Source: an uncultured Candidatus Peribacteria bacterium (GTDB taxonomy: Bacteria; Patescibacteriota; Gracilibacteria; UM-FILTER-43-11). Taken from it: a DNA stretch of 64,000 nt. The position numbers and the translations under genes were made by a program. Location of the stretch: assembly GCA_964458485.1 (NCBI GenBank), contig CAYWJA010000004.1, positions 2,231 through 66,230 of the forward strand, read 5' to 3'. Below, piece by piece: positions 31,404 to 31,854 of this stretch; position 1 is the stretch's first letter, and each line of letters begins with the position of its first letter. The notes under the pieces were generated by a model. The model worked only from the letters and a program-made list of their open reading frames with translations. It had not been told where the DNA came from and searched no databases.

Positions 31404-31430
31404 TTTTTAGTTTTTATTTTTTAATTTTTA
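31404..31430. repeat. Left arm of a perfect 27-nt inverted repeat enclosing the four-helix-bundle gene
   Basis: tttttagtttttattttttaattttta; its exact reverse complement lies at 31828-31854. I checked this base by base. Confidence 0.9.
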
Positions 31431-31821
31431 GTCTGGATGTACTGTAAATTTTTGCAAAAATTCGTATCAATTCATCCACTTCTTTTAATAATATTTTCTC
31501 AGACTCGATCGTCTCGGGGATAGCTTCGAAAAGCATTTTCAGCCAGAATTCAGTTTCCTTGGCCTCCTTCTTGGCTATTGCAATTTTATGGATAAAATCT
31601 TTTGTCGACTCAGCCCCATTCGCTTCTCGATAGTTTGCACCGATGCTTGTTCCGGACCTTAATAATTGGCTTAGGATGTTTTTATTATAAAAAGTTAATT
31701 TCGTACTTTTAACAAATTTTATAATCATAATGCCAAATTGCTCAGTCCGTTTTTCCAGAAAATATTGTTTATTATATTTGTTTTGATAGGATGAATTATT
31801 GTTTACAGTTACGTCTGTCAT
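31414..31821 (-). CDS. Four-helix-bundle protein (23S rRNA intervening-sequence protein family)
   Basis: 135 aa. The motif SGTSIGANYREANGAESTKDFIHKIAIAKKEAKETEFWL is characteristic of this family. Confidence 0.85.
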   Translation of the reverse strand: MTDVTVNNNSSYQNKYNKQYFLEKRTEQFGIMIIKFVKSTKLTFYNKNILSQLLRSGTSIGANYREANGAESTKDFIHKIAIAKKEAKETEFWLKMLFEAIPETIESEKILLKEVDELIRIFAKIYSTSRLKIKK

Positions 31822-31827
31822 GCTAAA

Positions 31828-31854
31828 TAAAAATTAAAAAATAAAAACTAAAAA
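31828..31854. repeat. Right arm of the perfect 27-nt inverted repeat
   Basis: taaaaattaaaaaataaaaactaaaaa. It overlaps the stop codon of the ComEC-like gene (31848-31850). Confidence 0.9.

Follow-up and report, generated by a model that had tools for sequence, protein, structure and literature searches.

What is a perfect inverted repeat doing around a single small gene? We asked this about a four-helix-bundle protein gene in a 64,000-nt stretch of DNA (the window) from an uncultured Candidatus Peribacteria bacterium. Proteins of this family were first noticed inside the intervening sequences (IVS) of 23S rRNA. An earlier, sequence-only reading had proposed that the repeat could be an RNase III processing site that releases the cistron, or could mark a mobile or invertible cassette. 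We examined the locus together with the rest of its genome (G000; 1.64 Mb in 56 contigs, to which the labels C4, C5, C8 and so on refer), its relatives and other phyla. The answer that we favour, with a probability of about one half, is that the repeat forms the arms of an IVS-type cassette: a PF05635 gene occupies the loop of a long hairpin, and the arms of this hairpin are inverted arrays of a short, tandemly repeated word.

The locus

The sequence TTTTTAGTTTTTATTTTTTAATTTTTA at 31404-31430 and its exact reverse complement at 31828-31854 form a perfect 27-nt inverted repeat; both arms lie exactly where the sequence-only reading had placed them. Pairing extends beyond these 27 nt and reaches 87% over 39 nt (31401-31439 with 31819-31857). 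The 27-mer has two exact matches in the window and one match with three mismatches (63868-63894), compared with none in 100 shuffles. The arms consist of A and T only. About four TTTTTAN heptamers fit into the perfect 27 nt, and the full 5' array contains five. The features of the locus are listed in Table 1.

Table 1. Features of the cassette, its neighbours and a related hairpin (window coordinates)
Feature	Position	Strand	Remarks
5' arm (in the gene's sense), TTTTTAN heptamer array	31828..31854	-	6 nt ahead of ATG
3' arm (in the gene's sense), A-rich, exact reverse complement of the 5' arm	31404..31430	-	
Four-helix-bundle gene, 135 aa, GANYREAN-motif subfamily	31414..31821	-	PF05635 / TIGR02436, 2RLD
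Whole cassette including the extended imperfect pairing (39 nt, 87%)	31401..31857	-	
Upstream neighbour: 282-aa MBL-fold hydrolase, ComEC C-terminal-domain-like	31848..32696	-	
Extended -10-like box TATGCTACAATA of the downstream glmU-like gene	31385..31396	-	by eye, aligned gaps
Downstream neighbour: bifunctional sugar-1-phosphate nucleotidylyltransferase/acetyltransferase, archaeal-type GlmU-like	30069..31358	-	
Gene-less hairpin, TTTTTAN word family	63882..63941	.	16-bp perfect stem, 28-nt loop

The 135-aa protein scored above the curated cut-offs of both PF05635 (59.9 bits, E 3e-16, cut-off 33.8) and TIGR02436 (80.4 bits, E 1e-22, cut-off 24), and its nearest solved structure is PDB 2RLD (E 1.3e-15). 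The arms overlap coding sequence on both sides, as had been described. On the left, the arm takes in the stop codon of the gene together with the five codons before it and a portion of a sixth (tail ..LKIKK*). The right arm contains the stop codon (31848-31850) and the final codons of the upstream MBL-fold gene, whose product reached 123.8 bits against TIGR00361, below the cut-off. C-terminal tails can be read from the arm words in several cassettes: RLKIKK in the window (31414-31430) and NAKLKKNAK in the copies on C8 and C5 (L008/L009 1825-1854). Such arm-coded tails are missing from the copy in the related genome G024, which indicates that the ORFs merely extend into the arm up to the first stop codon.

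In this A/T-rich DNA, a promoter and terminator scan of the locus gave sites no more numerous than in shuffles and no terminator. Rfam found a single tRNA in the window and nothing else. At 63881-63942, where the same word family had been reported, we found a gene-less hairpin; its stem (63882-63897 with 63926-63941) is near the start codon of a minus-strand gene ending at 63861. Contigs from four marine metagenome runs of two studies were identical to the window and bridged each arm in one orientation, free of joints, indels and loose ends. At their depth of 2-5, at which rare forms can escape contigs, they contained neither an empty nor an inverted form.

Family genes between inverted arrays in the genome

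The genome has ten PF05635 genes above the cut-off. It turned out that all ten are surrounded by inverted word arrays, each with its own word, for example TAGTGCTG, GTAGGAT, TTTCCAAATGG, GGATCCAATAGG and ATTTCGC/ATTTCTG. The gapped bracket scores of the ten genes were 12-36, compared with 7-8 for two sub-threshold matches. Among 880 ATG ORFs of 80-200 aa the mode of the score was 8, and only 15 ORFs reached at least 18, eight of them PF05635 genes. Put as rates, this threshold was reached by 8 of the 9 tested PF05635 ORFs that start with ATG, versus 7 of the 871 other ORFs of this length. Relative to the upstream neighbour, five of nine cassettes have the same orientation and four the opposite one. 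No transposase domain was found in the cargo genes, which encode four-helix-bundle, GxxExxY, GIY-YIG or unassigned proteins.

Of the other seven ORFs with a score of at least 18, three are further small cargo genes inside inverted arms of their own. One encodes a GxxExxY/TIGR04256 PD-(D/E)XK protein (C7:48061-48499, L043); the other two, on C24 (L044; C24:18137-18511 and C24:16352-16864), encode a protein of the GIY-YIG type and a membrane protein with weak similarity to pilins. The RNase III gene lies between inverted ATTTCGG/ATTTCTG arrays 1.5 kb apart (C6:7223-8778, score 22). Ordinary genes bracketed by adjoining repeat copies were also identified by eye, namely S12-like, ClpP-like and thioredoxin-like ones.

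The sequence-only reading had itself warned that the arms belong to abundant A/T word arrays, and this warning was fair. The genome contains 41 TTTTTAN arrays with a length of 24 nt or more; of the 820 pairs that these can form, 34 (4%) have at least 27 nt in common, and C39:6110 has a 30-mer identical to the array of the locus. Most of these arrays are the arms of ~85-nt gene-less hairpins that abut stop or start codons. Because the TTTTTAN arrays form a conserved multi-copy family, arm identity alone is weak evidence. The non-random feature is the inverted pair straddling the gene, not the identity of two arrays.

Relatives and other phyla

The PF05635 family has expanded in the lineage of this genome: it occurs in 33 of 41 genomes, with up to 16 copies each. 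When the best PF05635 locus of each of 28 relatives was scored, 23 exceeded all 108 shifted controls, and the arms at the relatives' loci were again tandem words of 7-8 nt. GTDB species genomes were then scanned with five subfamily-C proteins of this genome as queries. Loci of the subfamily came from Verrucomicrobia, Chloroflexi, Acidobacteria, Planctomycetes, Gammaproteobacteria, Bacteroidetes, many Patescibacteria and others. A score of at least 14 was reached by 50 of the 72 analysable loci versus 4.3% of cross-paired controls, a control value that is inflated because unrelated loci have ATTTCGN / AAATNCN-type words in common. Thus, the inverted repeats that the earlier reading had proposed to look for around other four-helix-bundle genes were found in all three surveys.

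The recurrence of ATTTCGN / AAATNCN-type words among phyla, at loci that are otherwise unrelated, indicates that the word type follows the protein subfamily. The arms of this genome's subfamily-C cassettes matched foreign subfamily-C arms in 22 of 296 comparisons, and those of its other subfamilies in 3 of 444. The A/T-only arms of the 31401..31857 cassette matched foreign subfamily arms in 3 of 74, no better than random segments. These comparisons show that the arm word type tracks the protein subfamily, and not the host or the locus. The 5' arm lies directly beside the ATG in most members of the subfamily. GxxExxY genes in relatives have a conserved arm motif of their own (..GTCTGAAC..TGATT..) at 8 of 14 loci.

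The MBL-to-glmU gap through time

The adjacency of the MBL-fold gene and the glmU-like gene is kept at 19 loci of the family and class; in the window, the gap between both genes spans 31359-31847. At 14 of them the gap is 31-169 nt long, with unrelated word hairpins or GC-rich hairpins. The gap of G024, which belongs to a different genus (g2), contains the closest known relative of the 135-aa gene (61% identity), which is probably an orthologue. This cassette has the same orientation as that of G000. Between its arms and those of G000 there are 17 indel positions and one substitution; even so, the two G024 arms match each other perfectly over 44 of 44 nt, which means that both arms of each cassette evolve in concert. 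In G001, from the genus of G024, a deletion relic remains, in which ~33 nt from the 3' end of the gene are left together with the right arm, and in G017 the gap is empty. Across relatives, the gap is therefore seen in three states: filled, relic and empty.

Two further gaps hold other contents. In G015 (L024:2316-2738), TTTTTAN-type arms enclose a broken ORF with one in-frame stop, a GC-rich hairpin insert and no family match. We considered this cargo as the C-terminus of a Y1 transposase and dropped the idea, as Pfam gave it no support. In G004 (L030:2331-2993), a 92-aa ORF without a family match lies between its own inverted repeat, as judged by eye.

Directly after the variable gap, an extended -10-like box, TGTGGTAAAATA (or TATGCTACAATA), is conserved in relatives. 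It is the sole conserved element of this hypervariable gap (L014, L015, L017, L019, L022, L024, L026, L030, L031). The box indicates that the glmU-like gene has its own putative promoter, so that the cassette is located at the 3' end of the ComEC-like unit and not in the middle of an operon. The earlier statement that the repeat lies within an operon is therefore correct only in part.

A duplicate pair and selection

Two cassettes of the genome, C8:23972-24512 and C5:57460-57993, are ~90% identical and carry near-identical 124-aa genes. The outer ends of the arms are the exact limits of their homology, which also takes in an inner spacer common to both; the flanks are unrelated. One G:C to C:G change between their arms is compensated. 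In the sequence outside the arms we saw no target-site duplication at C8, at C5 or at 31404-31854. The pair has a dN/dS of 0.06 at a pS of 0.39, and its arms differ at 5 of 72 positions (7%). This indicates that the protein is functional and that the arm sequence itself is constrained. As dS is saturated between the G000 and G024 copies, the C8/C5 duplication looks younger than the split from the sampled genera, and in that case at least one of both sites must be new.

These data show that the unit that is inherited, duplicated and lost is the gene plus its arms, that the arms stay exact inverted copies while their sequence changes, and that the four-helix-bundle protein is under strong purifying selection. 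The cassette-like unit that the sequence-only reading had suspected is supported by the duplicate pair bounded by its arms and by the states of the MBL-to-glmU gap. The mobile-cassette reading is moderately supported.

Gene-less hairpins and nested repeats

We counted 201 gene-less hairpins in the genome. Those with the arm words of a given cassette numbered 16 for the 31401..31857 cassette, 34-37 for C8 and C5, and 8 for each of the two C22 cassettes, and the ratio of gene-less hairpins to cassettes ranged from 16:1 to 35:2. All of these are per-cassette counts, since single-linkage clustering by shared 9-mers lumped unrelated families. Hairpin density per kb was 0.90 in co-directional gaps, 0.83 in convergent gaps and 0.57 in divergent gaps.

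The loops of ATTTCGC hairpins hold copies of an unrelated MITE-like repeat. This second repeat class has arms of the form TTTGTCATCC-hairpin-GGATCCA, loops of ~126 nt and dozens of copies; examples are C40:4291-4507, C1:77663-77875 and C19:14202-14411. A plain copy of the ATTTCGC-type host hairpin is in the window at 59278-59415 (C4:61508-61645). The repeated nesting indicates that hairpin loops serve as landing sites for small elements. A short GC-rich palindrome, GTAGGGGACGCAGATCTGC..., was found at 48710-48737 of the window (C4:50940-50967) and at ~12 other genome sites; it also occurs in the empty MBL-to-glmU gap of the relatives G022 and G013.

Pairing in RNA or in DNA

In the minus-strand RNA of 31385-31875, a 28-bp A-U stem enclosing the cistron was predicted in both the MFE and centroid folds. 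The fold energy was -108 kcal/mol versus -84 ± 5.6 for shuffles (z = -4.3). The genome encodes RNase III (rnc, C6:7869-8528), and cleavage at the predicted stem is plausible. To separate the levels of pairing, we compared G·U and A·C mismatches in the stems; selection for pairing in RNA would be expected to leave more of the G·U type on the sense strand. The sense-strand mismatches of the 201 gene-less hairpins between co-directional genes showed no bias to G·U over A·C (34:39). Neither did the isolated internal mismatches of the same hairpins (12 of the G·U type versus 9 of the A·C type), nor 67 cassette stems oriented by their cargo (24:34), in a test that rests on small numbers. Taken together, the absence of a G·U bias, the orientations of hairpins and cassettes, the conservation of the arm sequence, the words characteristic of each subfamily and the perfectly mirrored indels between the G000 and G024 copies favour copying at the DNA level and sequence-specific recognition of the arms.

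Alternative explanations

It is conceivable that pairing in the transcript is what selection maintains, with RNase III cutting the paired arms and so releasing or controlling the cistron, as in the 23S IVS. The predicted fold, the presence of rnc in the genome and the fully mirrored arm changes between G000 and G024 agree with this, as do the Coxiella IVS, which have this gene family and heptamer stems as well and undergo cleavage by RNase III (PMC4990558). Transcripts from outside would also carry both arms, given that the 5' arm abuts the ATG in most subfamily members. However, selection for RNA pairing does not account for the lack of a G·U excess on the sense strand in either gene-less hairpins or cassettes, for arm sequence that is conserved beyond pairing and well above synonymous sites, for words that follow the protein subfamily across phyla, or for the four of nine cassettes that point against their upstream neighbour. 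We regard RNA processing as the selected function as unlikely, and as the strongest competitor of the cassette reading. The hairpins could also be the primary feature and the gene a lodger, because gene-less hairpins outnumber cassettes, fill gaps of all orientations and host unrelated repeats. In that case tandem-word hairpins would be an intergenic feature of the host, into whose loops small selfish genes (four-helix-bundle, GxxExxY, GIY-YIG) insert, as IVS do at the tips of 23S helices. The excess of TTTTTAN and ATTTCGC hairpins over cassettes is in line with this, and so are the MITE-like copies in ATTTCGC loops and the MBL-to-glmU gaps that hold other arm-enclosed cargo (G015, G004) or plain word hairpins. 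But host-owned hairpins would not be expected to have words that track the cargo family and subfamily across unrelated phyla, the duplicated copies on C8 and C5 have the inner spacer in common as well as the arms, and ten of ten genes in loops that make up a tiny fraction of the genome would call for a targeting mechanism. We regard the lodger explanation as unlikely too, and rank it slightly below RNA processing.

Two other explanations fared worse. If the arms were recombination sites, the segment could flip and switch the gene or its neighbours on and off, and a single gene between perfect inverted repeats, with cassettes of mixed orientation genome-wide, would look much as observed. We reject this inversion, one of the possibilities raised by the sequence-only reading, as highly improbable: no invertase or recombinase gene is adjacent, the contigs of the four marine runs bridge each arm in the window orientation only, the G024 copy is oriented in the same way, and the arms vary between copies, which leaves no single recombinase site in common. 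An accidental flanking of a short gene by two members of an abundant A/T word family, the null case of the earlier reading, can draw on the number and similarity of the TTTTTAN arrays and on the few ordinary genes between adjoining repeats. It is refuted by the surveys, and its probability is negligible: all ten family genes are bracketed, with a different word each, versus less than 1% of other ORFs, the bracketing is also found in relatives and other phyla, and the G024 copy in the same gap has different and again perfect arms.

Discussion

The IVS-type cassette, to which we give even odds, would work as follows. Its arms would be kept at the DNA level through arm-to-arm copying. They would be recognised by their sequence, and the most likely reader is the protein that the cassette encodes; homologues from its family form pentamers (2RLD; Xanthomonas S23p). 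The cassette may be a selfish or semi-mobile element of low frequency, and the many gene-less hairpins that use its words would be related to it in the way in which REP sequences are related to their RAYT gene. No movement enzyme is encoded in or beside the cassette. Spread could proceed without a transposase if the arms served as homology and the gene was copied into a gene-less hairpin of the same family. Upon read-through from the ComEC-like gene, the arms would pair into the 28-bp A-U stem around the cistron, a likely substrate of RNase III, as in the 23S IVS. Such a stem would set the RNA of the cassette apart from the surrounding host message, and the start codon would be masked by it. 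On this view the RNA stem follows from the design without being the selected feature, and it may explain why rRNA tolerates such cassettes.

Apparently, the locus is a relative of the rRNA intervening sequence, so far undescribed and probably semi-mobile. A more general proposal can be put forward only tentatively, and we would sooner bet against it than on it: PF05635 proteins may be the protein partners of tandem-heptamer hairpin repeats (STRR-like repeats and 23S IVS stems), each subfamily recognising its own array; the cassettes may be copied, transposase-free, into gene-less hairpins of the same word; and the rRNA IVS may be one landing site among others. To our knowledge, no function has been assigned to the S23p / four-helix-bundle family since its discovery in the 23S IVS in the 1990s, and we know of no explanation for the excess of heptamer repeats (STRR, GGGNATC) in bacteria. 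Both subjects are linked by this locus and its genome, and the link can be tested. The material for this is concrete: ten cassettes whose arm sets all differ, dozens of gene-less hairpins built from these words, two recently duplicated copies and a gap that occurs in three states among relatives. If the protein does read its own words, this would be a new system of a repeat plus its partner, and it would explain the origin of rRNA intervening sequences.

Comparison with known systems

REPtrons, reportedly described by Nunvar in 2010, Bertels and Rainey in 2011 and Ton-Hoang in 2012, are said to be RAYT transposase genes flanked by inverted REP sequences, with further REP copies dispersed in the genome. 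The cassettes resemble them in that inverted repeat copies flank a gene, that each paralogue has its own repeat family and that many further copies of the repeat are dispersed over intergenic gaps with no gene attached. Unlike in a REPtron, the cargo here is a non-enzymatic four-helix bundle and not an HUH/Y1 (IS200/IS605-like) transposase, with only PF05635 / TIGR02436 returned by Pfam and NCBIfam; the arms are arrays of tandem words and not a single imperfect palindrome, and mobility is putative. MITEs and transposons with terminal inverted repeats are likewise small, multi-copy and accompanied by shorter gene-less members, whereas the cassettes lack a transposase and, at C8, C5 and 31404-31854, a target-site duplication, and their arms vary among copies within one genome.

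Avd is a pentamer and binds nucleic acid. This accessory protein of diversity-generating retroelements is related to PF05635 (the family is mentioned in PMC10053308). As a member of the same four-helix-bundle family, it is a precedent for a cargo that recognises RNA or DNA. In contrast to the Avd systems, there is no reverse transcriptase, template repeat or variable repeat near our gene.

Heptamer repeats outside rRNA have been described as GGGNATC repeats in Xanthomonas and Nostoc and as the cyanobacterial STRR; both kinds are intergenic, and their arrays comprise roughly four or five units (Rehm et al. 2015, PMC4692102). In Xanthomonas, 70-75 pairs of heptamer repeats are convergent and capable of forming stem-loops, with no gene named, and G-quadruplexes were proposed for heptamer repeats in the same work (Rehm et al. 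2015, PMC4692102). The arms at our locus are likewise head-to-tail 7-nt units between genes, with five TTTTTAN heptamers in the 5' array, as in an STRR. Unlike these repeats, their A/T-only words cannot form G-quadruplexes, and the pair encloses a specific gene family. Full-text literature searches returned no paper linking heptamer/STRR repeats with the PF05635 family outside rRNA.

The closest published system is the ORF-bearing 23S IVS. In Coxiella burnetii, the helix-45 IVS with S23p carries GACAGAT repeats in a 28-bp stem, at which RNase III cuts (Warrier et al. 2016, PMC4990558). By the account given there, ORF-bearing 23S IVS also occur in Leptospira, Brucella and Xanthomonas (Warrier et al. 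2016, PMC4990558; Ralph & McClelland 1993 cited there). The cassette has the same protein family in its loop and a ~28-bp stem made of terminal inverted repeats (27 nt perfect and 39 nt at 87%, predicted in MFE and centroid folds), its element is ~430-460 nt long, tandem heptamers lie in the stem beside the start codon, and RNase III is available. It differs from the 23S IVS in its host site, which is between the MBL-fold and glmU-like genes and not at the tip of a 23S helix (25 or 45), and in its ten copies per genome, each with its own word; the 23S rRNA is absent from the assembly of this genome. Purifying selection on the protein is strong here; the Coxiella ORF, in contrast, is decaying. 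The stem-around-the-ORF geometry that had suggested the comparison in the first place matches the Coxiella IVS down to the tandem heptamers in its stem (PMC4990558). The analogy with the rRNA intervening sequences is sound, and it is a general one.
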